A stretch of DNA of 64,000 nt from an uncultured Dictyoglomota bacterium (lineage in GTDB: Bacteria > Dictyoglomota > Dictyoglomia > Dictyoglomales > Dictyoglomaceae), in NCBI GenBank assembly GCA_964654465.1, contig CAZZIO010000032.1, positions 58,908 through 122,907 on the forward strand, in the 5' to 3' direction. Position numbers and translations under genes: made by a program. This document shows, piece by piece, positions 35,638-46,509 of this stretch. The notes beneath the pieces are model-generated. The model was not told where the DNA came from and ran no database searches. It was given only the letters and a program-made list of their open reading frames with translations. Each line of letters starts with the position of its first letter. Position 1 is the first letter of the stretch.

Positions 35638-36240
35638 TTAACCTCCTTTAATTAAAATTGGAAAAAACTCTTTTAATTTTTTAAATGCTATAGTTCTATG
35701 ACTTATCTCATTCTTTTCCTGTTCTTTCAATTCTCCAAAAGTTTTCCCGAGGGGAGGATAATAAAAAATTGGATCATAACCAAATCCAGAATCTCCCCTT
35801 ATTTCAAAAGCTATATAACCTTCCACAACTCCTCCTGTCACTATTTTTATATCATTTTTATGATCATAGTATACTACTTTACAAATAAACCTTGCTGTCC
35901 TTTTTTCCCAAGGCACATCTCTTAATTTTTCAAGTATAATATTCATTCTTTCCTTATAACTTAAATCCTCTTCAAACCTTGAGGAGTAAACTCCCAATAT
36001 ACCCTTTAACATATTTATCTCTAATCCAGAATCTTCACCTATAGCTGGTAGATTTAATTTTTCAGAAATAAATTTTGCTTTTAGAAAAGCATTTTCTTCG
36101 TAAGTTTTTCCTATTTCTTCCGGTAAAGATATCTCTATAAATTCATCCAAGGTTTTTAAATAATCTTTATATTCTTTTAAAATCTCATAAATTTCTTTTA
36201 TTTTTCCTTTATTTTTGGTAGCTAATACTATATACCTCAT
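35638..36240 (-). CDS. rdgB: RdgB/HAM1 non-canonical purine NTP pyrophosphatase
   Basis: [24 protein letters not shown]; rph-rdgB synteny. Confidence 0.95.
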
Positions 36241-36959
36241 AATAAACCTAATGTCTTTTTTTGGATTTCTATTAGTTTTAGAATACCCTGTTTAGCCAAA
36301 CTTAACATCTGTTCTAATTGTTCATGAGTAAAAGGTACCTTTTCAGCAGTCCCCTGGATCTCAACAAATCTTCCACTCTCTGTCATTACAACGTTGAGAT
36401 CAACCTCTGCCCTCATATCCTCGTTTGATGAAAGATCCAACAAAATCTCACCATCTACAATTCCAACACTTATAGCAGCAACAAACTCCTTTATAGGTAT
36501 CTCCTTTATAAGTCCTTCCCTTCTTAATTTTTCTAATGCATCGTATAAAGCAACAAAAGCTCCAGTAATTGCAGCTGTCCTTGTTCCCCCATCAGCCTGA
36601 ATAACATCAGCATCAATCCAGAGAGTTCTTTCACCTAACTTAGAAAAATCTATAACAGCTCTCAAAGAACGTCCTATCAGTCTTTGTATCTCTTGAGATC
36701 TTCCGTTTATTGCCCCTTTTACTATATCTCTTACTTTTCTTTCTGGTGTAGATCCAGGAAGCATTCCGTATTCTGCAGTAAGCCATCCTTGGTTAGTTCC
36801 TTTCAAAAATGGTGGTACTTTATCCTCCATGGATACAGTACATATTACTCTAGTTTCGCCCATCTCAATAAGAACTGAACCAAGAGGATATTTTAAATAT
36901 CTCCTTGTAATTTTAACTGGCCTAAGATCTGTGTTTGATCTTTTATCAATCCTGATCAT
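36237..36959 (-). CDS. rph: Ribonuclease PH
   Basis: [45 protein letters not shown] at 36959 fits the SD better than GTG at 36965. Confidence 0.97.
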
Positions 36960-36961
36960 TG

Positions 36962-37882
36962 TCACCTTCCTCTTTCTTTAAGTTTATTAACCATTTTATC
37001 ATACTCCTCTTTATTCACAAAACCTACAAGCAAGTATTCTTGTCCTTCTGAAAAAATAAGTTCTGGATATAAATAAAATTCCTTTATCTCTTTAGTATTC
37101 TTAACATGAAGTCTTGGCCCTGTACAATGTATTACTTTGTCTCCTATTTTAATATGTTGTTTATCCCAATAAGAAACTTCTAAACTCATATCAATATATT
37201 CTTTAACTTTTTCTTCTATTCCTTTGATATCTATATTAGGTTTTTCTTTTAACTTAATAACAAATCCATGTTTGATATCACTATGCCCTTCAATATATCG
37301 ATATAAGCCATATTCTTCTAACACCATACCTGTTAAGTCCTCAGCAGTATGAGCTTGTAATCTATATGTCAAAGAAGGAAATACTATATTTACTATTTCC
37401 TGAGGTAAAGGACCAAATACATTAGGTCTCGTTACTATAACTTCCTCTCCAATCCCTATCAAAAGATCTGCGTTTCTTTTTAAATAAGGATAAATAAGTT
37501 CAAAATGCTCACAAACAACTTTTTTTTCATTTTCCAAGGCTTTTAGAATAGATTCTGCCAATATATATATGGGATAGAAAGCTAATTCAAACCTAACATC
37601 CACATGATAAATAAAATCATAAAACATACTTCTTTGAAAATCTTCTATTATAGGCGCTGGACGTCTATATATACCTTCATCATCATTAGTTAAACTTAAC
37701 CCTGGAAACAATCCTCTTATAAGTAAGGATTTTCCTGAACCAGAATCTCCAATTACTCCAATAAGTTTATCATCAGAAAGTAAAAAATTCTGAGAAATTA
37801 CAGATCCAAGAAGCATAAGTCTTGCTTCTCCACGAGGGGCATAATAAATAGCTTCCTTTAGAAGCACTTTTGTATGAATCAT
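36962..37882 (-). CDS. P-loop NTPase fused to a divergent AlaX/tRNA_SAD-like metal-binding editing domain; function unknown
   Basis: Walker A GDSGSGKS (aa 45-52); C-terminal R..AHTAEDL and [14 protein letters not shown] resemble AlaRS/ThrRS editing motifs HxxxH and CxxxH..NT.EI. Confidence 0.75.
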
Positions 37883-37888
37883 TTTTTA

Positions 37889-38416
37889 TTATTTCCAAAA
37901 AGAATTACCCTCAGAATCTATGGCAACCATAGCAGGAAAATCTTCTACCTCAAGATAATAGATAGCTTCTGGTCCTAATTCATGAAAAGCAAAAACTTCC
38001 ATTTTCTTTATCTTATCTCCCAAATAGGCTCCTGCACCCCCTACTGTTACAAGATAAACTCCCTTATACTTTTTAAAATACATTTCTGTTTCTTTATCTC
38101 TTTTCCCTTTTCCTATAAAACCGACTATTCCTTGAGAAAGTAGCCATGGCACAAAAGGATCCATTCTTTTACTTGTTGTAGGGCCAGCTGATCCTGAAGC
38201 TTTTCCAGGAGGTGCGGGTGATGGCCCCATATGATAAATAAGACTATTTTTTAGTTCTAAAGGTATATCTTTCCTTTCTTTTATTAGATCAACAAGAAGT
38301 TTACATGCTTGGTCTCGAGCAGAATATATAGGACCATCTAATAATAACCATTCACCTACTTTTAAAGATTTAAGTTCATTTATCTCATTTGGAAGATTAA
38401 TCTTTTTAAATTTCAT
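37889..38416 (-). CDS. Class I fumarase/Fe-S hydro-lyase beta subunit (probable mesaconase)
   Basis: ARDQA, AGPTTSKRMD, IGKG, GGAGA, LGPEAIY.LEVEDFP. Confidence 0.92.
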   Translation of the reverse strand: MKFKKINLPNEINELKSLKVGEWLLLDGPIYSARDQACKLLVDLIKERKDIPLELKNSLIYHMGPSPAPPGKASGSAGPTTSKRMDPFVPWLLSQGIVGFIGKGKRDKETEMYFKKYKGVYLVTVGGAGAYLGDKIKKMEVFAFHELGPEAIYYLEVEDFPAMVAIDSEGNSFWK

Positions 38417-39255
38417 ATTTCAAACCACCCATGTCTTATAGCAGAACATTGCATATTTATGGCCAAAGTAAAACCAGCAATGTGAACAGGAAATACCTCA
38501 ATATGTACTCCTAATGCAGTAGTCTTACCCCCTAAACCTCCTGGACCTATATTTAACTCATTAATCTCCTTTAACAATTTTTCCTCCATTTTGGCCCAAT
38601 ACGGATCATTATTCTTTTCTTTCAGAGGTCTTAAAGTAGCTTTTTTGGACAATAAAGCAGCCTTTTCTAAAGTTCCTCCTATACCTATTCCAACAAGTAA
38701 TGGAGGACATGCATTTGGACCATGGTTTTTTACATGATTGACTATCTCACTAATAAGCTCATCCTCAGTTATTGTTGGTATAAGGCTTTTAACAATGCTG
38801 GCATTTTCACTCCCAAAACCTTTTATCAATATATAAAACCTTAATTTATCCCCAGTTTTTATTTCGTAATGCACTATTGCAGGTGTATTATCTTGTGTAT
38901 TTATCCTTTTAAGAGGGTCTTTAACTACAGAAGGCCTAAGATAATTTTTTTTATAAACCTCTGATACAGCCCTATTTATGAGATCGTTAAGATTTCCTTT
39001 TATACATACCTTATCTCCTATTTCTACAAAGGCAATCACCATCCCACAATCCTGACATATAGGAATTCTTTTTTCTTTTGCTATCTTTGCATTCTTAATA
39101 AGTATATCAAGAACAATTCTTGCATTCTCATTATTTTCAATATTATATGCCTCTAAAAGTGCATCTTCCACATCCTTAGGTAATTCAAAGTTAGCTTTTG
39201 TTATGACATGGACTAATTTATTATAAATTATGTCTCCCTCTATAACTCTAAACAT
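38413..39255 (-). CDS. Class I fumarase/Fe-S hydro-lyase alpha subunit (probable mesaconase)
   Basis: PICQDCG, KGFGSEN, ACPP, GPGGLGG.TT, C-terminal QCSA.RH. Confidence 0.92.
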   Translation of the reverse strand: MFRVIEGDIIYNKLVHVITKANFELPKDVEDALLEAYNIENNENARIVLDILIKNAKIAKEKRIPICQDCGMVIAFVEIGDKVCIKGNLNDLINRAVSEVYKKNYLRPSVVKDPLKRINTQDNTPAIVHYEIKTGDKLRFYILIKGFGSENASIVKSLIPTITEDELISEIVNHVKNHGPNACPPLLVGIGIGGTLEKAALLSKKATLRPLKEKNNDPYWAKMEEKLLKEINELNIGPGGLGGKTTALGVHIEVFPVHIAGFTLAINMQCSAIRHGWFEI

Positions 39256-39562
39256 CTATTTTCACCTCAAGTAAAGGAGCATGTTGCTGAGCCCCATAAA
39301 CATCTGAATCTCCGGGACTTCCTGATGGAACTTTTCTTTTAATATTTGCTTTAACTGCACATACAGGATCAAAGTAAATAACCGAAATTACATCTGATCC
39401 TTTGAGCCCATACAAGTTTGCCCAAAAATTTTTTGAAAAATAGTCCATATTTTTAAGTTTTTCATATACTTCCTTTTCCTTAAAGATTATATCGATAGTT
39501 AAAATAAAAGGACCACTATTTTTTGTTCTTATAACTTTTGCTAATTCCACCATACTCCTCAT
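39248..39562 (-). CDS. DUF4387-like small protein
   Basis: LAKVIRTKNSGPF.LT.DI and GDSDVYGAQQHAPLL; immediately follows the AtuA-like gene. Confidence 0.8.
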   Translation of the reverse strand: MRSMVELAKVIRTKNSGPFILTIDIIFKEKEVYEKLKNMDYFSKNFWANLYGLKGSDVISVIYFDPVCAVKANIKRKVPSGSPGDSDVYGAQQHAPLLEVKIDV

Positions 39563-39567
39563 AATAA

Positions 39568-40908
39568 CTATACCTCTACCACTTTAATAGGAAATTCATA
39601 TTCGTCAAGTTTTATAAGATGATATAATTTAAACTCAAAAACTTCCCCCCATATAACCTCAGAAGGAGAGAAAGGAAAGGCAAGATTACCTGCTGTTGCT
39701 ATTCTTCCTTTATAACCATAATGAAGCAACGTAGATCTTATATATCCTAATATCATCTTTGTTATATTAATATCCTTACTTATGACCTCTATAACAAGAC
39801 CTAATTCATGAGATACACCATTAAATCTTTCCCATTCACCCATTACTCCATTCTTTCCATATACATGAAAATAAATTTGGTAATCATCCGTCATATCTCT
39901 AAAGTTTTCTCTTACTAATTCTCTCTGAATCTCCAATATTTCATCTATTTGTGAAATCATGATAGGATCCCTAATACCTGCTATACATACACCTCTTATT
40001 CCAACAAACTTTGTCCCTTCTACTTTTAACCACTTTTCTTTTCCTTCTATAAATCTTGAACCCTTTACAATAACTGTTTTCTCATCCTTTTGAGTAAAAG
40101 TGGTAGTTGTCAAATCAATAATTCCATCTGGTCCATGTAAGAAATAAGGATCACTTTTTTCATATAATGTATGAGCAGCAACAGATGTAACTGTACACTT
40201 TCTATTCTCATTTATGGGAAATACTTCAAAATGATCATCAAAGAGAACACCTATAAGTCCATCTCTTCCACTTCCTGGTTCTGCTGCAATAGCCCCACAT
40301 TCTAATATTTTACCTAAATGAAGAGATAATCCCTTAGAATAACCATAATGTATAGGTAAAGCAGAAAAAGGTGCAGGGTCATAACTTCGTCCACAAATTA
40401 TTATATTCACACTTTTTTTATAACCTTCTATAAAAGGATCAATACCAACTTGTGCTACAATATTCGTAATACTTTCCAAATCCTCTACCCCAACTTCTGA
40501 GGAACCATCCAAGGTTTTAATATTTCCGTTAGTTATGGATTCCTTTATTTTATCCTTAGGAATATCCGTATATATTATAGCTATTTTCATGTGCCAATTA
40601 TTTTCTTCCAGTATCTCCTTTACTATTTCAAAGGTCCAATCTACAGATGATTTACTGCCACATCCCCCAGCACTTCCTATAAATAATGGAATATCCAATT
40701 TATGAACCATATTAATTAGGTATTTTAAATCTCTTTTTGTAGCACCACGATCTACAAATGAGATACCCCTTCCAAGATAATATGGGCCAGGATCAGTAGA
40801 CCCAGCATCAACAGCAACTAAATCTGGCTTTATTTCTAAAGCATTATAATAACTTTGTTCTGGAAAACCATATCCAAGAATTGCTGTGGGTGAATAGATT
40901 TTAAACAC
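39568..40908 (-). CDS. AtuA-like (DUF1446) protein
   Basis: SPTAILGYGFP, DAGSTDPGPYYLG, GRSYDPA, KILECG, AAHTLYEK, AGNLAFPFSP. Confidence 0.8.
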   Translation of the reverse strand: MFKIYSPTAILGYGFPEQSYYNALEIKPDLVAVDAGSTDPGPYYLGRGISFVDRGATKRDLKYLINMVHKLDIPLFIGSAGGCGSKSSVDWTFEIVKEILEENNWHMKIAIIYTDIPKDKIKESITNGNIKTLDGSSEVGVEDLESITNIVAQVGIDPFIEGYKKSVNIIICGRSYDPAPFSALPIHYGYSKGLSLHLGKILECGAIAAEPGSGRDGLIGVLFDDHFEVFPINENRKCTVTSVAAHTLYEKSDPYFLHGPDGIIDLTTTTFTQKDEKTVIVKGSRFIEGKEKWLKVEGTKFVGIRGVCIAGIRDPIMISQIDEILEIQRELVRENFRDMTDDYQIYFHVYGKNGVMGEWERFNGVSHELGLVIEVISKDINITKMILGYIRSTLLHYGYKGRIATAGNLAFPFSPSEVIWGEVFEFKLYHLIKLDEYEFPIKVVEV

Positions 40909-42151
40909 TTTTTACTAAGCCCTTCCTTCTTAGAATTTGAAGTGTTCTATTCATTTCATTATTTACTATCATTAAACCCTCATCTACTCCCATGCCAGGT
41001 TTTGCTAATATCTGATCTGCTTGAACTGCAAGACCTATATGCACAGAAACTTGAGCAGACCTATCTGTCTCATTACAACTTCCTCCTATATAAGTACCAA
41101 TGTTATGTCCTTTACAATATAAAGCTGCCTCAATAGAATTATGAATACTACCTAAAACAGGAGTTTTTATTTGTATCATATCAACCGCCTCTGCTTTTAT
41201 GAAATCTCTAATATCTTCAAGACTATTACACCATTCATCAGCAACTATTTCTACTCCCAAACCTCTTCCTTTTAGCTCTTTTCTCAATTTGCTTAAAAAC
41301 TCAATTTGTTTCTCCCTATTTTCTAAATCAACAGGACCTTCTATTCTGAGTTTATGTGGAAATGAAATTTTTTCAAGCCTCGCTAAATATTCTACTATTT
41401 CATCAATATTATAATTAAATGCTATACCTATAGTTCCATATACATCTATGTGAAAAATTGGTAAATATCCTTCCTCTCCTAATATTCTTACCCTTTCTTT
41501 GAGCCAGCCTAAATATTCTATTAGTTTTTCTCCTCTCCACCCTAATTTTGTCTCTACATTATTTATTAAACCATGTGGAAGAACATCTACTCTCTTCAGT
41601 ATCATTTTGTCCACACTAATATAACGATCGTCTCCTGATTGAGCAAAAATTGGAATTCTCTTTATATCAAAATTTAAATTATACTCCTCTCTTATTATCT
41701 CAGTCATAGTCTTCCTATAATGTTTTGAAAACACATCAAGAATTGCTTGAGAAATTCCGTACCTTACTGCGGTATGTAACTTATGATCATTTATTTTGAA
41801 ATTGTCAATCTTAACACATAAATCCTTAAAACTTTTCCATTCATCCTTTAACAGAAAAGGAAAAACATGTTGTTCCAAAATTTGTAACCATTCACTAGTT
41901 TTAAAGAGAGGATCTCTTCCTCCTGCACCAGAATATTGAATAGCAGTACAATCCCCATAAGCTATCTGATCATCCTCCAAAATGAAGATAATAGATATAC
42001 TTTCTCCTTTCTGCCTTATAGCCTCATAACCTTCAGTTAATGGTACTCCTCTATAGGCGAAACCATCTTCACGAGCCCCTGCCTTAATAGCTCTTTGGTC
42101 ATCAAAATAGAAACCAGAAAGTCCTATCGAATATAGTACATCTTTAATCAT
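40901..42151 (-). CDS. mal: Methylaspartate ammonia-lyase
   Basis: DDQRAIK, QYSGAGGRDPLF, LPHGLIN, HIDVYG, ADEWCN, QIKTP, GGSCNET. Confidence 0.96.
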   Translation of the reverse strand: MIKDVLYSIGLSGFYFDDQRAIKAGAREDGFAYRGVPLTEGYEAIRQKGESISIIFILEDDQIAYGDCTAIQYSGAGGRDPLFKTSEWLQILEQHVFPFLLKDEWKSFKDLCVKIDNFKINDHKLHTAVRYGISQAILDVFSKHYRKTMTEIIREEYNLNFDIKRIPIFAQSGDDRYISVDKMILKRVDVLPHGLINNVETKLGWRGEKLIEYLGWLKERVRILGEEGYLPIFHIDVYGTIGIAFNYNIDEIVEYLARLEKISFPHKLRIEGPVDLENREKQIEFLSKLRKELKGRGLGVEIVADEWCNSLEDIRDFIKAEAVDMIQIKTPVLGSIHNSIEAALYCKGHNIGTYIGGSCNETDRSAQVSVHIGLAVQADQILAKPGMGVDEGLMIVNNEMNRTLQILRRKGLVKSV

Positions 42152-42155
42152 TTAT

Positions 42156-43607
42156 TTACCTCGGTCTTCCTATTAATCTTCCCTTACTGATTGCATAGAT
42201 ATCATCAAGTACCATTTGAAAACTTACATCTCTTTTCTCAAAACGAGCTCTCTCTTCCAATCTTTCCTTATGAAAAGTTTTTACCTCTTCGTCAAAAGGT
42301 AGATTTCCAAAATCAAAAAATCTAACAGCACCTTCATTATCCCGTACTGGCATTACTCTTCCATAAGTATATTTACTTGGTGCAAAAGGTACATCCAAAA
42401 TTCCTGAAGAGAAAGCCTTAACAGCTCCCACAGCTATATCCCCTTTCCCTATTTCATAAACCCTATTGAGGATAGATCTTACTTCTCTTTCAATAATATA
42501 TTCCTCTTGGCTTAACTTCTCTTCATCTATAAAATTTTGGTTTTCTAACATATTTAAAACCTGACGAGTATTCTTAAGGGCTGAAGCATTTGCTTCTTTT
42601 GTGGGAATACCAATAGCTTCCTGGGGTGTTTTTACAATTATCTTTGTTACCTTCGATATAGCCCCAGCTATAGTCCCGAAACTTATAACTGCGTAAGCTT
42701 TAGCTTCATCTTCTGGAAAACCTCCCATCCAGTGATGTAGAACAGTAGTTATATGAACATCATAATAACCAAAACTCGCAAGATATTCCCTTGTTAGTTT
42801 CTCTAAAATTTTTATTGAAGCTACATCTTGAATAATATTACCACATTGTCCATATCCTACACTAAAACTTTTCACTCCTTGTTCTGCTGCAAGAATGGCT
42901 TCTATTATTCCAATACTTATTGAGATAGACGGTGGAACTAAAGTACCAGTGAGAGGGCCAAAAGATTCTCTATTTATTAATATTCCTTCTTGTGCATATA
43001 TTCCTACTAGATAATCTATATATTGCCAATATAAAATTGAATTTTCCAATGGAACATCCTTAGCATAAGGAATATTGTAAGTAATTCCTCCCCCTTCAAA
43101 AGATGTAAAACCTGCAGCCAAAGTAATCTCAGCAAGAAGTCTTGCATCTGGAGTACCATGTCTTACTTCAACAGGCACTTTTACACTTTCTATGATTTCT
43201 CTACAAGCTTTTACTCCATAATTAACAGCTGGAAAACCATTAAGAAGATATCTTCCTTCTTTTAAACTTTCTTCTATTCCCAATTGTGCTTCTTTATATC
43301 TATTCTGTCGAGTATAACTATCAATAGTTGTAGGTAAGATATCTGCTCCTCCCTCATCTTGTAAATATTGAAGAAGAACAATATGATCTTTTAAAATTGG
43401 AATACCTGCTCTTGGTTGTAATAAGGTTTTATTATTCTGAGATGCTTCTCTCAATACATAATCGGTCTGCTTTTCTTTAGGTAAAGATGTTAAATATAAA
43501 AAGGCTTCTTTTAAATCAACTTCTCTACCTGTAGGCCATGAATTCAAGACATCTTCTCTCATATTAAGAAAATATTTATGATCCCATTTCTTATTTTTTA
43601 TAAACAT
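42156..43607 (-). CDS. glmE: Glutamate (methylaspartate) mutase epsilon subunit
   Basis: [58 protein letters not shown]. Confidence 0.96.
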
Positions 43608-43619
43608 AATCTCATCCCT

Positions 43620-44987
43620 CTATACTTTGTTTATATATTTTTCTACAAGACTCATAGATTTATCCTTATAGATCTCCGAGATTACTCCTATAGCAAACAT
43701 TATATATTCCTTATCTACATAAAAGGTAGGATTTTTAGGCTTCAATATAAAAGGTTCATCATTAGAATATATTACACCCTTTAAACTTTCCACTCTATAA
43801 GGATTATATATTAAAGGCCCACCTGTACATACCACTTTATCCAATTCCCTTAAATCTTTCCCATATTGGAAAAGCAATGTTCCCATAGGGGTATACACCA
43901 TTTCTATATGCCCTACATGTCTCTCTGTAGCAATCTTTACAGCAAAATAAGCAAGAATAGCGTCTAAATGTAAATCTTCATCATTTTTTGGAATATAACT
44001 CGTATTTATGTTTAAAAATTTTACTTTTTCCTCTATAACTTTAACCTTATCATGTGAAAAACTTTTTATAATATCTTTTTTTGCAGACTCAAATAAAGAT
44101 AGTGCAGATACTCTAACCCCCAAATCTCCTTCCACAGATCTTTTTACATATGGCTCTTTTAATCCCTTTAAGATTACATTATTCTGGGTAGGTTCTCCCT
44201 TTGCTACAGAACAAACATCGGTAGTTGCTCCTCCCACATCAATTAATAAACATTCACCATATATCTCTGAGAAACTTTCCAAACCCTTTAATACAGCAAG
44301 TGGTGTAGGCATTACTATACCGTCTATTATTTCTTGCACTTTATCTAATCCCTTTGCATGTATAATGTTTCTTAAAAAGACCTCTCTGATAATATTTTGG
44401 ACCTTTTCTATATTTATAACTCCATATTCAGGCATTACATTCTCTGTTATGTATATTTCTTTACTATTAGATAAAAAAATATTTTTTATTTCATCTTGTA
44501 AATCTTTATTTCCAGCATAGATAAAAGGAATATTTAAGGGAAGCCTTGATAATTTTTTAGCATTTATTATTGGATAGTATCTATTTCCCCCATCTGTTCC
44601 CCCAGCCAAAATTATAATATCTGGCTTTAAATAAAGAATCTCGTCCAAATCCGAACTTGTAAGTTCATAGGAATAGATCTTAATTACCTTTCCCCCTGCT
44701 CCTAAACTTGCTTTCTTAGCTGCCTCAGTAGTTAAATCTGGAACTAAACCTATAGCAATTATTTTTAAACCTCCAGCAGCACTGCTTGTAGCTTTTTTAA
44801 TATTAAAATCCCTTATATTTAGTCCAGTTTGTCTTTCTATTTCAGAAATTACATTTTGAAGACCTATCGTTACATCTTCATTTACAGTAGATGGATATTT
44901 TGCTCTCCCTATAATTTCACTTTTATCTAAATCAAAAGCTACACCTTTAGTAAATGTACTTCCTATATCAAATATGATTGCCTTCAT
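43620..44987 (-). CDS. glmL: Glutamate mutase reactivating factor GlmL (MutL of the glm cluster)
   Basis: DIGSTFTK, SSAAGGL, LAGGTDGG, MPTP, DVGGATTDV, VEGDLG actin-like ATPase motifs. Confidence 0.93.
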   Translation of the reverse strand: MKAIIFDIGSTFTKGVAFDLDKSEIIGRAKYPSTVNEDVTIGLQNVISEIERQTGLNIRDFNIKKATSSAAGGLKIIAIGLVPDLTTEAAKKASLGAGGKVIKIYSYELTSSDLDEILYLKPDIIILAGGTDGGNRYYPIINAKKLSRLPLNIPFIYAGNKDLQDEIKNIFLSNSKEIYITENVMPEYGVINIEKVQNIIREVFLRNIIHAKGLDKVQEIIDGIVMPTPLAVLKGLESFSEIYGECLLIDVGGATTDVCSVAKGEPTQNNVILKGLKEPYVKRSVEGDLGVRVSALSLFESAKKDIIKSFSHDKVKVIEEKVKFLNINTSYIPKNDEDLHLDAILAYFAVKIATERHVGHIEMVYTPMGTLLFQYGKDLRELDKVVCTGGPLIYNPYRVESLKGVIYSNDEPFILKPKNPTFYVDKEYIMFAIGVISEIYKDKSMSLVEKYINKV

Positions 44988-44989
44988 AA

Positions 44990-45406
44990 TTATTTATCTA
45001 ATCCTAAATCTTTTTTTAAATCTCTAATAACTTCATCTGGCATTGTTTTTGGTGGATATACTCTATTAAATCCTAATTCTTTAAATTTCTTTTCCACTTC
45101 TTCCCAATTTTTTTGGCCTATTCCCAAATTTCCACCTATATACAACAATACATTATCAAGACCTGCCTCTTGTAGTTTTTCCCTGAATCCTCTACAATCA
45201 AGCTCAGCATGTCCATATAAAGATGAAACTAAAATAGCTCTTGCATCAGATTCAATCGCTGCTTTTATGAAATCTTCTTGAGAAGAAAGAACTCCAATAT
45301 TAACCACATCAAAACCTGCAGATCTTAAAGCATAATCCAAAATTCTTAAACCAACCGCATGTACATCCGCCCCTATTACTCCGAGAACCACCGTCCTCTC
45401 ACCCAC
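44990..45406 (-). CDS. glmS: Glutamate mutase sigma (B12-binding) subunit
   Basis: GADVHAVG (DxHxxG), SSLYGH, YIGGNL; GTG at 45406 fits SD GGGGTG (ORF track starts at 45415). Confidence 0.95.
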
Positions 45407-45411
45407 TAAAA

Positions 45412-46509
45412 TCACCCCTTAATAAGATTAAATATTAATAGAGATGTATTATAAAGATTATCTAATTTAATTTTCTCCTCCTTAGAATGAGCATTCTCCA
45501 TACCTATCCCCACATTTATAGCCTTTATACCATAAGAATTTAGAATATTAGCATCACTTCCTCCCATAGTATAAGTAAATACTGGATTCTTTCCCATTTT
45601 ATTTAATATGCTCTCTATATACTTTACTAATGTTTCATTAGGATCAATAGAAAAACCTTTGTAAAGACTTTCTTTCTTTAAATCAAAACTTCCCCCTCTA
45701 TCCTTTAATGCCGAAAGTTCTTTTTCCATATTTTGCCATTGTGTACTAAGTTTACTCTTATCTATACTTCTAAACTCACCCTCCAGATAAACTTCCTCTG
45801 GAACTATATTTGTAGCTCTTCCACCTTTTATAATACCAACATTAGAGGTTACATCTTTTTCTATTCTTCCCCATTTAAGTTTCAATAAAAACTCAGAAGC
45901 AAGAAGAATAGCATTTATTCCTTTCTCAGGAGAGGTACCTGCATGGGAGGCTTTACCAAATATCTTTAAATAAAACCTATCATGATATGGGGCACTAAGT
46001 ATTAACGTACCAACATCACCTTCTCCATCTAAGACATATCCCTCTTTTGCGTGTAAAAGTGAAAGATCCACGTTTTTAGCCCCTAAAAGTCCGATCTCTT
46101 CACTAACAGTAAAAAGAAATTCTACTTTTCTATTTTTAATATTATTTTCTTTTATTGCAGTTATAGCCTCTATTATAGCTGCTATTGCAGCTTTATCATC
46201 AGCCCCCAAAATAGTGTTTTTGTCACTAACTATGTAATCACCTTCAATCTTTGGATTTATATTTTCACCGGGATCTACTGTATCCATATGAGCGGATATT
46301 AAAAAAGGTTCTCCTTCACCATCCATAATTGCTATTAAATTCCCTGAACTCCCACCTATTTTTTCACCTGCAAAGTCCTCATAAACTTCCAAACCTAATG
46401 CTTTTAACCTACTCTTTAAAAATTGAGAAAACTCTTTTTCCTTAAGAGAAGGGGAAGGTATTTTGATTATTTGAAAAAAAGTATTAATGAGTCTTTCTTT
46501 ACTTAGCAA
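45412..46509 (-). CDS. M20-family peptidase T-like metallopeptidase
   Basis: [30 protein letters not shown]-terminal HSKEE. Confidence 0.9.

Follow-up and report, generated by a model that had tools for sequence, protein, structure and literature searches.

What does a protein that joins a P-loop ATPase domain to a tRNA-editing fold contribute to a glutamate mutase gene cluster? This question is raised by the gene of a 306-aa protein in the window, that is, in the whole stretch of 64,000 nucleotides from an uncultured Dictyoglomota bacterium that was analysed here. Glutamate mutase is a classic example of an adenosylcobalamin radical enzyme, and the clostridial form is active in vitro with the E and S subunits and adenosylcobalamin alone. 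To our knowledge, the assembly, protection and reactivation of glutamate mutase in the cell are poorly known, and the role of GlmL in them is only presumed. The original prediction offered two roles for the 306-aa protein, one in the quality control of tRNA against 3-methylaspartate, and the other in the loading or repair of cobalamin together with GlmL and GlmES.

The gene and its operon

The gene of the 306-aa protein occupies positions 36962-37882 of the minus strand, where an open reading frame with an ATG start is supported by an AF2 model of its product; the plus strand of the same interval is full of stops. All the motifs listed in the original prediction were located in the translation at the residue numbers given there. 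About 980 database clusters are homologous to the protein (E <= 0.001), and its relatives are named at NCBI as 'alanine-tRNA synthetase second additional domain-containing protein'. Literature searches found no description of the gene: no paper paired 'second additional domain' with 'glutamate mutase', and neither AlaX nor TsaE occurred among the matches listed for combinations of AlaX, TsaE, glutamate mutase and methylaspartate. In bioRxiv 10.1101/2025.11.12.688011, the words GlmL, MutL, chaperone, reactivase and accessory were looked for and not found.

The gene lies downstream of a row of pathway genes, all on the minus strand. These encode GlmS, the B12-binding small subunit (44990-45415, Pfam B12-binding), the GlmL/MutL accessory protein (43620-44987, Pfam MutL, 540 bits), GlmE, the methylaspartate mutase E chain and the proposed partner (42156-43607, Pfam Met_asp_mut_E, 735 bits), and methylaspartate ammonia-lyase (40901-42151, Pfam MAAL_N and MAAL_C). 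The next two genes, annotated as AtuA family (39568-40908) and DUF4387 (39248-39562), matched chains A and B of PDB 9ERQ/9EVF in phmmer searches (E 6e-137 and 1.9e-26, respectively), and by this sequence match the pair is the citramalate lyase CmlAB, the structure of which has already been solved. They are followed by genes for the alpha (38413-39255) and beta (37889-38416) subunits of a split class I fumarate hydratase-type enzyme (Pfam Fumerase and Fumerase_C), which were assigned as mesaconase after Kronen and Berg 2015 (PMC4682846). That paper describes a Dictyoglomus cluster together with DUF1446, and the gene of the 306-aa protein is absent from that description.

The coordinates agree with the predicted 6-nt gap between the mesaconase beta gene and the gene of the 306-aa protein. 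The latter is not the last gene of the operon, as had been proposed, because rph, encoding RNase PH (36237-36965, minus strand; Pfam and junction sequence), and then rdgB, encoding a Ham1-type protein (35638-36240, minus strand; Pfam), follow directly downstream. The TGA stop of the 306-aa gene (36962-36964) overlaps a GTG codon and lies 2 nt before an ATG codon of the RNase PH gene, and the ribosome-binding site of the RNase PH gene is located inside the 3' end of the 306-aa gene. A terminator scan across the 306-aa gene, rph and rdgB found no convincing terminator.

An ATPase domain joined to an editing fold

Assignment from sequence by Pfam and NCBIfam gave just sub-threshold P-loop and tRNA_SAD matches, while phmmer and profile searches against PDB sequences returned only P-loop noise. 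In the AF2 model (pLDDT 90.2, pTM 0.84) both of the expected folds, a P-loop domain and a tRNA_SAD/AlaX domain, were found by VIA-align and Foldseek, which bears out the two-domain build proposed originally. The ESM Atlas returned the protein's own family and one further lead, DUF3388, with a score of 0.77. Among proteins of 537-2000 aa no fused (Rosetta-stone) forms were found, which is weak evidence, and the 577-aa protein P0251, considered as such a fusion, looks like a chimeric gene call.

The N-terminal domain (aa 6-159; 37406-37867, minus strand) was assigned by VIA-align and hhalign as a TsaE/YjeE-type P-loop ATPase. In VIA-align it matched YdiB (5np9), TsaE (6s84, 6n9a, 6nak) and HI0065 (1htw, 1fl9) with Z of 9.6-10.5 and an rmsd of 3.1-4.4 A over 121-132 residues, while other P-loop proteins came next with Z <= 8.6. 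The hhalign comparison with this genome's own TsaE gave a probability of 92.9% over 44 columns, which covered the N-terminal helix and the P-loop segment. When the two were compared by eye, the P-loop of TsaE had a counterpart in the 306-aa protein, its H-x-D-x-Y-R segment resembled Y-H-V-D-V-R-F, and its I-E-W segment resembled C-E-H-F. The Walker A motif G45-D-S-G-S-G-K-S52 (37727-37750, minus strand; translation and alignment) is intact in the form GxxGxGK[ST], with G45, G48, G50, K51 and S52 invariant in a 24-sequence alignment, and the Walker-B-like K121-V-V-C-E125 is present in the translation as claimed. Judged from the model, the closest P-loop relative of the 306-aa protein is TsaE. 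The Pfam TsaE family (PF02367) scored 12.3-13.0 bits, below its cut-off of 26.6, and the true TsaE of this genome is a separate 154-aa protein (127 bits, at G000:C60), so the 306-aa protein is not the TsaE of the t6A pathway. It also differs from TsaE in its extra domain, and in its genomic partner, which is the TIM-barrel subunit of a mutase rather than TsaB or TsaD.

The C-terminal domain (aa 168-306; 36965-37381, minus strand; VIA-align and hhalign) has an AlaX-S-like editing fold. The VIA-align matches to AlaX-M (9iuw, 2e1b), AlaX-S (1v4p, 1wnu, 1v7o), AlaRS (2zzg, 2zze) and ThrRS (1qf6, 1nyq, 1tje) all fell within Z 12.1-14.4, with an rmsd of 2.2-3.6 A over 118-137 residues; the Foldseek probability for this fold was 1.00, and hhalign aligned the domain to the genome's own AlaX-type protein with an E of 2.2e-5 over 94 columns. 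The predicted motifs R174 .. A177-H178-T-A-E-D182-L and C253-T-G-P-R257-L-H259-V-K-N-T-K-E-I are present as numbered; the motif residues of the protein are invariant in the 24-sequence alignment and at least 90% kept in a 40-sequence alignment. The fold over the C-terminal half, the H-T-A and C..H-V-x-x-T-G-E-I motifs and a size close to that of AlaX-S are thus shared with the editing domains of AlaX, AlaRS and ThrRS.

The same motifs also set the protein apart from AlaX. In the alignments and by hhalign, H178-T-A-E-D182 (37337-37351, minus strand) is the counterpart of HxxxH in which Asp takes the place of the second His, while C253-T-G-P-R257-L-H259 (37106-37126, minus strand) is the counterpart of CxxxH, with a spacing of five residues instead of three owing to a two-residue insertion that contains an invariant Arg. 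Asp182 is Glu in two relatives, both of which adjoin genes of diverged GlmE-like proteins. Both differences held against the genome's own proteins, all of which have standard HxxxH: the motifs are HTATHLL ... CGGTHV in AlaRS, HTSSHIL ... CKGPHL in ThrRS, and HTAQHLL ... CGGLHV in the 403-aa AlaX-type protein, in which hhalign placed a two-residue gap at C253-H259 (Cys-x5-His). The net charge and pI of the C-terminal domain were dropped as a sign of tRNA binding, as the core of the genome's own AlaX-type protein is equally acidic.

The editing fold could be explained by trans-editing. The AlaX-type domain would then deacylate tRNAs that wrongly carry 3-methylaspartate or some other acidic analogue; the additional carboxylate would be recognised by the inserted Arg257, and the handling of the tRNA would be assisted by the ATPase domain. 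This explanation is favoured by the genuine fold with its H, C, H and T-G-E-I elements kept, by the invariant Arg of the insertion, and by the derivation of both domains from families of the tRNA machinery. On the other hand, the family-defining HxxxH and CxxxH are both altered, tRNA_SAD (PF07973) reached only 14.8 bits (E 0.028; 17.7 bits in a whole-genome scan) against a cut-off of 24 bits, and AlaRS, ThrRS and the 403-aa AlaX-type protein are already encoded in the genome. The same pocket could alternatively bind a free amino acid, with the ATPase or kinase modifying or signalling this ligand in metabolite repair or operon regulation, and with no binding to GlmE. The solved AlaX structure 1wnu holds free L-serine in its pocket, and the conserved polar pocket of the 306-aa protein includes an Arg, which are consistent with such an enzyme or sensor, while no DNA-binding or signalling domain was found in Pfam or NCBIfam.

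Linkage to GlmE-family genes

The occurrence of the gene was surveyed in 301 Bacillota genomes sampled evenly across the phylum. The gene is present in 68 of them and a GlmE-family gene in 77, and 65 have both (Fisher p about 1e-49, a value which is overstated, as related genomes are not independent). The three carriers without GlmE (G034, G046, G171) have only fragments or stop-broken copies. Of the 68 carriers, 59 have the two genes on one contig, 57 at a distance of no more than 20 kb and 50 of no more than 10 kb; hence, the homologues are not mostly located away from B12 mutase clusters, a possibility which the original prediction had raised against itself. The predicted linkage to the glutamate mutase cluster is also seen at the individual loci. 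These were counted by tblastn matches, and antisense ORFs masked real genes in the gene calls (e.g., L033, L040, L044, L081). At least 573 genome loci were matched; of the 80 best, 52 contain a glutamate-mutase-pathway gene, and the gene order varies, as the 306-aa gene follows cmlB at 24 loci, fumB at 5, mal at 3 and glmE at 1, and stands directly before glmS at 12 and glmL at 2.

At 40 of these best 80 of at least 573 loci rph is directly downstream, which, together with the tight coupling of the two genes in the window, would fit trans-editing, because rph is a gene of tRNA 3'-end processing. This adjacency is explained, however, by a conserved backbone into which the cluster is inserted, consisting of a Germane-family gene, glutamate racemase, ..., rph, rdgB, phosphoesterase, trigger factor, clpP and clpX. 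As far as we know, rph is near-universal, so its co-occurrence with the 306-aa gene is uninformative.

The gene tracks GlmE more closely than it tracks the rest of the pathway, as 65 of the 68 carriers have a GlmE-family gene, while methylaspartase and the MutL family are each present in 54. This bears on the second proposed role, in which an NTP-driven chaperone, comparable to MeaB of methylmalonyl-CoA mutase or DdrAB of diol dehydratase, would deliver or remove adenosylcobalamin together with GlmL and GlmS, with the His/Cys pocket ligating cobalt. The tight linkage to a B12 enzyme argues for it, as do the CobA/CobO-type adenosyltransferase genes located directly downstream of the 306-aa gene at four loci (L066, L067, L068, L072) and a conserved His/Cys/Asp pocket which, judged from its residues, could ligate a metal. 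However, no MutL-family gene was matched in 14 of the 68 carriers, and 64 of the 118 genomes with a MutL-family gene have no 306-aa gene, which argues that the protein is not a general companion of the reactivases of B12 aminomutases. Moreover, an adenosyltransferase of the CobA/CobO type (199 bits) is encoded in this genome, so that none is missing; a role as the missing adenosyltransferase was rejected for this reason, and no PduO-type enzyme was found in this genome. Relatives of known B12 chaperones, including G3E-type MeaB/ArgK, were absent from the fold matches listed, an absence which by the rule of the fold search does not speak against a relation, and gave no Pfam or NCBIfam match.

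The gene is not found wherever GlmE is. It is missing from 12 of the 77 GlmE-positive sampled genomes, and full clusters without it are present in two single-contig genomes, with the gene orders glmSLE-mal-cmlAB-fumAB (G263) and glmSLE-mal-citDEF (G224). No relative was found within 9 kb on either side of an E. coli glutamate mutase cluster, and a 314-aa hypothetical gene upstream of E. coli glmS was rejected as a relative. Its absence in many GlmE-positive organisms suggests that the 306-aa protein is dispensable for the pathway there.

The neighbouring GlmE-family gene is itself strongly diverged in nine sampled genomes, where its product is only 32-41% identical to the GlmE of the window. 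It adjoins the 306-aa gene directly in six of these nine genomes, and lies 1.2-3.8 kb away in three. In all five of the nine diverged GlmE-like proteins that were inspected, the residues at R66, R100, E171 and Y181 are lost, while another invariant block is kept. Eleven sampled carriers have a GlmE-family gene without methylaspartase, and in all five of their inspected GlmE-family neighbours the glutamate-binding residues are lost. In four genomes with such a diverged (pseudo-GlmE) gene, neither methylaspartase nor a GlmS orthologue was found, and in three of them no GlmL was found; a GlmS orthologue was likewise found in none of five carriers whose GlmE-family gene stands alone. The copies of the 306-aa protein beside pseudo-GlmE keep Walker A, D67-D68, Y-H-x-D and E125-H126 in the ATPase domain, as well as H178, E181, D/E182, H205, C253, R257 and H259 in the editing-fold domain. 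In two genomes (G131 and G168), the ATPase half alone (164-165 aa) is encoded near a GlmE-like gene. Thus, the partnership with GlmE-family genes survives the loss of the substrate-binding residues of the mutase.

These observations weigh differently on the alternatives. Proofreading against 3-methylaspartate, as in the original prediction, is not supported by a gene that tracks GlmE better than methylaspartase, stays intact in the 11 genomes without methylaspartase and beside GlmE-like genes without glutamate-binding residues, and exists in ATPase-only forms; we regard trans-editing as decidedly improbable. The enzyme or sensor appears scarcely more probable: GntR-family regulator genes accompany many clusters, and one stands directly before the pseudo-GlmE gene at L081 and L082, but the pocket residues, including R257, are unchanged beside GlmE-like proteins in which the glutamate-binding residues are lost, and the linkage is to GlmE specifically rather than to the metabolite-producing set. 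Cobalamin loading came closer than tRNA editing in placing the protein with the mutase, while its reliance on GlmL and GlmS did not hold. No B12-binding subunit could be recognised alongside the diverged partners, which argues against a specific role in the loading of cobalamin; in its strict form we consider this role unlikely.

A possible helper of GlmE

To our reading, the partner indicated by these observations is GlmE itself. The predicted complex of GlmE and the 306-aa protein scored 0.36 (runs 0.36, 0.11 and 0.54), while the best of three controls scored 0.00; the runs share at least 71% of contacts, with a pLDDT of the partner of at least 82. Of 80 solved complexes, 58 reached the pass mark used, against 2 of 110 mismatched pairs. 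Only 7 of the 80 solved complexes passed with scores <= 0.60, as did both passing mismatches. In the band to which 0.36 belongs, a pass is more likely to be false than true, except where there were good prior grounds for the pair. The prediction weakly supports binding between the two proteins.

Comparison with known accessory proteins gives a mixed picture. The 306-aa protein shares several features with the accessory proteins of B12-dependent mutases (GlmL/MutL, MeaB/MMAA and DdrAB/PduGH): its gene accompanies that of a B12 mutase, it contains a nucleotide-binding domain, catalysis as such does not require it, and only some of the lineages have it. It differs in that its gene does not depend on GlmL and is missing from most MutL-family genomes. 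No sequence or fold relation of the 306-aa protein to B12 accessory proteins was seen among the matches listed, and it persists beside GlmE-like proteins in genomes where a B12-binding subunit was looked for and not found. Unlike AlaX, it is linked to GlmE and not to translation genes, its editing-fold domain is fused to an ATPase, and this domain is absent altogether in the two genomes with ATPase-only forms.

We therefore tentatively propose, at a little less than an even chance, that the 306-aa protein is an accessory factor of GlmE, the TIM-barrel subunit, and not a pathway enzyme or a tRNA editor. The loss of glutamate-binding residues in its neighbours, the lack of methylaspartase and the ATPase-only forms count against proofreading and favour an ATP-driven helper that serves GlmE, although the ATPase activity of the protein and its link to cobalamin are both inferred. 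Points against the proposal are the 12 GlmE-positive sampled genomes that lack the gene and the activity of the clostridial mutase in vitro with E, S and adenosylcobalamin alone. The action of TsaE on TsaD, a partner-activated ATPase switch, serves as the model; a further point against it is that the known partner of TsaE has the ASKHA fold instead of a TIM barrel. By analogy with TsaE, the TsaE-type domain would dock on GlmE, and ATP binding and hydrolysis would be a switch that resets or assembles GlmE, possibly by parting E from S at their interface, removing a damaged cofactor or keeping hold of apo-GlmE. The polar His/Asp/Cys/His/Arg pocket of the AlaX-type domain would bind a metal and a ligand, or an element of the GlmE surface, instead of hydrolysing aminoacyl-tRNA. 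A more specific version, which we find doubtful, is a new class of enzyme-maintenance factors, made of two domains taken over from the tRNA machinery, in which the TsaE-type switch docks on the GlmE TIM barrel while the retooled AlaX pocket takes hold of a moiety resembling adenosine or an amino acid at the mouth of the active site, so that ATP resets or re-arms the mutase; the diverged GlmE-like protein and its ATPase would then form a second, B12-independent two-protein module in the glutamate racemase ... rph, rdgB operon of some Firmicutes.

The pairs with pseudo-GlmE offer a natural separation-of-function set for experiments, and the 306-aa protein may matter for methylaspartate-based pathways in heterologous hosts. 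As its gene accompanies GlmE in about five of six GlmE-carrying sampled Bacillota and in Dictyoglomaceae, the protein is a concrete and clonable candidate for the missing in vivo helper of glutamate mutase. If this is true, it would be a clear example of how a fold of tRNA editing and an ATPase of the t6A type were recruited to a job outside translation.

Structure and altered site of the studied protein

The studied gene (window 36962-37882, minus strand) was translated as a single open frame of 306 codons, and the plus strand across this interval is closed by many stops. Every residue named in the original prediction was found in the translated protein where it had been placed. The AlphaFold2 model, computed from 40 sequences, had a mean pLDDT of 90.2 and a pTM of 0.84, and its folds were assigned concordantly by Foldseek and two VIA-align runs. 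Residues 168-306 matched the editing domains of AlaRS and ThrRS as well as AlaX-M and AlaX-S (Z 12.1-14.4, rmsd 2.2-3.6 Å over 118-137 residues), and residues 6-159 matched TsaE/YjeE/YdiB (Z 9.6-10.5, rmsd 3.1-4.4 Å over 121-132 residues), as compared with Z values of at most 8.6 for other P-loop proteins. The profile comparison with the genome's own TsaE gave 92.9% probability over the helix and P-loop segment, and that with its own 403-aa AlaX-type protein gave an E value of 2.2e-5 over 94 columns. The predicted P-loop and tRNA_SAD folds were thus borne out by the model and the structural comparisons, but not by the Pfam TsaE and tRNA_SAD models, which both scored below cut-off. Because the same genome encodes its own TsaE, AlaRS, ThrRS, and AlaX-type protein, the studied protein is a diverged paralogue of both families and the housekeeping copy of neither.

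The editing motifs are H-T-A/S-x-H and C-x-G-x-H-V/L in the genome's AlaRS, ThrRS, and AlaX-type protein and H178-T-A-E-D182 and C253-T-G-P-R257-L-H259-V in the studied protein, and hhalign against the AlaX-type protein placed a gap of two residues exactly at the C253-H259 motif. In an alignment of 24 sequences H178, E181, D182, H200, D202, C253, R257, and H259 do not vary and H205 is conserved in at least 90%; in one of 40 sequences, conservation is at least 90% at every one of these positions. The His-to-Asp replacement and the Cys-His spacing longer by two residues were therefore described correctly in every detail. As judged from the alignments, the altered site is a fixed family feature and not decay, and its conserved His/Asp/Cys/His/Arg pocket is a putative ligand-binding pocket.

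About 980 clusters at 90% identity matched the protein at E ≤ 0.001, coming from Dictyoglomaceae and many Clostridia, Peptococcaceae-type, and Erysipelotrichales genomes; the NCBI naming of these homologues derives from a weak domain match. Only 239 clusters at 50% identity, mostly fragments, were obtained from 1.84 billion cluster representatives. By sequence the family is compact and strongly conserved, its Dictyoglomus and Firmicutes members sharing about 50% identity. A search for fusions found no longer fused forms, and a literature search found no description of the gene. Within Dictyoglomaceae it was present in nine of ten other genomes, the sole miss being a 72% complete genome. One genome carries two tandem full-length copies (G133:C23:22194-24079), with glmE on another contig.

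Operon and gene neighbourhood

The minus-strand gene order is M20 peptidase, glmS, glmL, glmE, mal, cmlA, cmlB, fumarase alpha, fumarase beta, the studied gene, rph, rdgB, ridA, rhomboid, S49 peptidase, and hrcA. Between the fumarase beta stop codon and the start of the studied gene there are 6 nt. The TGA of the studied gene overlaps a GTG and precedes by 2 nt an ATG of the RNase PH gene (rph), which has its ribosome-binding site within the 3′ end of the studied gene. The pair with the database names AtuA family and DUF4387 (window 39248-40908, minus strand) matched the solved two-subunit citramalate lyase CmlAB (PDB 9ERQ/9EVF) with E values of 6e-137 and 1.9e-26, which by sequence identifies these genes as cmlA and cmlB. 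The methylaspartate pathway from glutamate to pyruvate and acetate is therefore complete without the studied gene, and the cluster has no need of a CitDEF-type lyase. The M20-type peptidase gene (365 aa, window 45412-46509, minus strand) overlaps the glmS start by 4 nt, is found in the same place in four Dictyoglomaceae loci (L001-L004), and may supply glutamate to the pathway.

Relatives were found in at least 573 genomes, scanned at one genome per species, and in the best 80 loci the pathway genes were scored by tblastn with the window's proteins. Among these best 80, at least one of glmS, glmL, glmE, mal, cmlA, and cmlB was found at 52 loci, rph at 42, both rph and a pathway gene at 17, and neither at three, two of which are short. 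The place of the studied gene in the cluster varies: in the same 80 loci it directly follows cmlB in 24, fumarase beta in five, mal in three, and glmE in one, and it directly precedes glmS in 12 and glmL in two. The 25 of the best 80 loci with rph and without a pathway gene belong nearly all to Desulfosporosinus and relatives; all five such genomes tested have glmE, and in four of them it is on the same contig, 14-32 kb upstream.

The backbone at stand-alone GlmE-family loci runs from a Germane-family gene, DUF2179, and glutamate racemase or a MarR/GntR regulator through GlmE or a GlmE-like gene, the studied gene, rph, rdgB, metallophosphoesterase, and trigger factor to clpP and clpX. The corresponding order in Bacillus subtilis we take to be gerM, racE, ysmB, rph, ysnA, ysnB. 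The glutamate cluster is thus located in an old housekeeping region, which accounts for how often the studied gene abuts rph. In 35 of the best 80 loci, belonging to several orders, the studied gene remains with the glm genes, away from rph.

Several other genes recur at these loci. In Desulfosporosinus-type genomes with the glm cluster 14-32 kb away, the studied gene is directly preceded by genes for an O-methyltransferase (Methyltransf_3) and an HGSNAT-type membrane acyltransferase (L012-L014, L016, L023, L024, L029, L031, L035, L043, L045, L048, L049, L058). Four Oscillospiraceae/Lachnospiraceae-type loci have a gene for a CobA/CobO/BtuR-type corrinoid adenosyltransferase directly after the studied gene (L066, 3525-4055; L067, L068, L072). 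A GntR-family regulator, whose C-terminal domain of about 250 aa has no Pfam match, precedes glmS in many clusters (L010, 2024-3037; also L015, L027, L038, L044, L067, L071, L072, L078, L079, L092). Several glutamate mutase clusters have an insertion of a 2-hydroxyglutaryl-CoA dehydratase D-component (HGD-D) type gene and a BcrAD/BadFG-type activator ATPase gene, with mal or glmE on one side and cmlA or the studied gene on the other (L006, L011, L021, L046, L063, L075).

Co-occurrence with GlmE and pseudo-GlmE pairs

In 301 genomes drawn evenly from Bacillota, the studied gene was found in 68, a GlmE-family gene in 77, and both in 65, for which the Fisher value is descriptive only, since related genomes do not count as independent observations. 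In the three carriers lacking GlmE the gene is reduced to 48 residues (G034), to two pieces with a stop (G046), or to a copy split by stops (G171), and no intact studied gene without a GlmE-family gene was seen in this sample. GlmE was on the same contig in 59 of the 68 carriers (50 of them within 10 kb and 57 within 20 kb) and on another contig of a fragmented assembly in six. Methylaspartase and a MutL-family gene were each found in 54 of the 68 carriers, as compared with 65 for GlmE; the studied gene thus tracks GlmE better than it tracks the other pathway genes, which is new here. As 64 sampled genomes have a MutL-family gene and lack the studied gene, it is not a general companion of reactivase-like proteins serving other B12 aminomutases. 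Eleven have it together with a GlmE-family gene and without methylaspartase.

The studied gene is missing from 12 of the 77 GlmE-positive genomes. Two of these, each on a single contig, have full clusters: glmS-L-E, mal, cmlAB, fumAB (G263) and GntR, glmS-L-E, mal, citDEF (G224). A stand-alone GlmE (48-50% identity) without methylaspartase occurs in five others, and in the one inspected (G166) an HGD-D-type gene and a BcrAD-type ATPase gene follow glmE in the expected place of the studied gene (L093, 8284-10060). No relative lies in the 9 kb flanking either side of an E. coli cluster (glmS, glmL, glmE, mal, cmlAB, transporter, fumarase, cobO). The studied protein is therefore lineage-restricted, a putative helper and not a core subunit. 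Upstream of this E. coli cluster are two genes annotated as hypothetical (314 and 140 aa; L098, 4712-6158), the larger of which is unrelated to the studied gene.

Nine sampled genomes have a GlmE-family gene with only 32-41% identity to the window's GlmE; it directly adjoins the studied gene in six (G024, G072, G113, G201, G278, G304) and lies 1.2-3.8 kb away in three (G090, G131, G168). Five of the nine regions were inspected (L081, 9314-10618; L082, 6765-8072; L083, 12201-13610; L084, 5418-6866; L085, 10000-11457; 32-41% identity), where these stand-alone genes have glutamate racemase or regulator genes on one side and rph on the other. A GntR-family regulator directly precedes two of them (L081, 10611-11621; L082, 5755-6765). 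Three of the five proteins were tested and matched Pfam Met_asp_mut_E. All five have lost the residues at R66, R100, E171, and Y181, which are invariant in a 32-sequence GlmE alignment and which we take to be the arginine claw and catalytic residues of clostridial glutamate mutase, while an invariant block is kept (E160, G172-G173, Q260-D261, W293, G295-G296, R422, M465, D469, Y471, K475). Searches of four of these genomes found no methylaspartase and no GlmS orthologue, with generic B12-domain matches only (E 5e-10 or weaker), and GlmL in one (33-34% identity). By sequence, the GlmE-like genes are a pseudo-mutase family, always found with the studied gene. In the neighbouring copies of the studied protein the key residues of both domains are all retained, with Glu in place of D182 and Tyr in place of H200 in two. 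In G131 and G168 the ATPase domain alone remains (164-165 aa), and no second match was found elsewhere in these genomes. The pseudo-GlmE pairs, the ATPase-only forms, and the explanation of rph adjacency are new here.

GlmE as the proposed partner

The complex of GlmE (32-row alignment) with the studied protein (40 rows) was predicted with a score of 0.36 (runs 0.36, 0.11, and 0.54), against 0.00 for the best of three controls, which counts as weak support and is likewise new. Of 80 solved complexes, 58 reached the pass mark, as did two of 110 mismatched pairs; passes at or below 0.60 comprised only seven of the 80 solved complexes and both passing mismatches. The runs share at least 71% of contacts, with partner pLDDT of at least 82. 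Together with a strong genomic prior, this modelled result nudges the odds of GlmE binding up, and establishes neither binding nor an interface.

Two roles had been proposed for the protein. Editing of tRNA mischarged with 3-methylaspartate is weakened, because the protein persists where the neighbouring gene cannot make methylaspartate and ATPase-only forms exist. A strict role in loading cobalamin has also lost ground, because searches of four genomes with pseudo-GlmE pairs found no GlmS orthologue and, in three, no GlmL, and because the window genome already encodes a CobO-type adenosyltransferase. The best fit to the data would be an ATP-dependent accessory protein with the GlmE scaffold as its direct partner. 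TsaE is an ATPase which is activated by its partner and resets the partner's active site, and, as a working analogy, the studied protein may be a TsaE-like switch acting on its partner.
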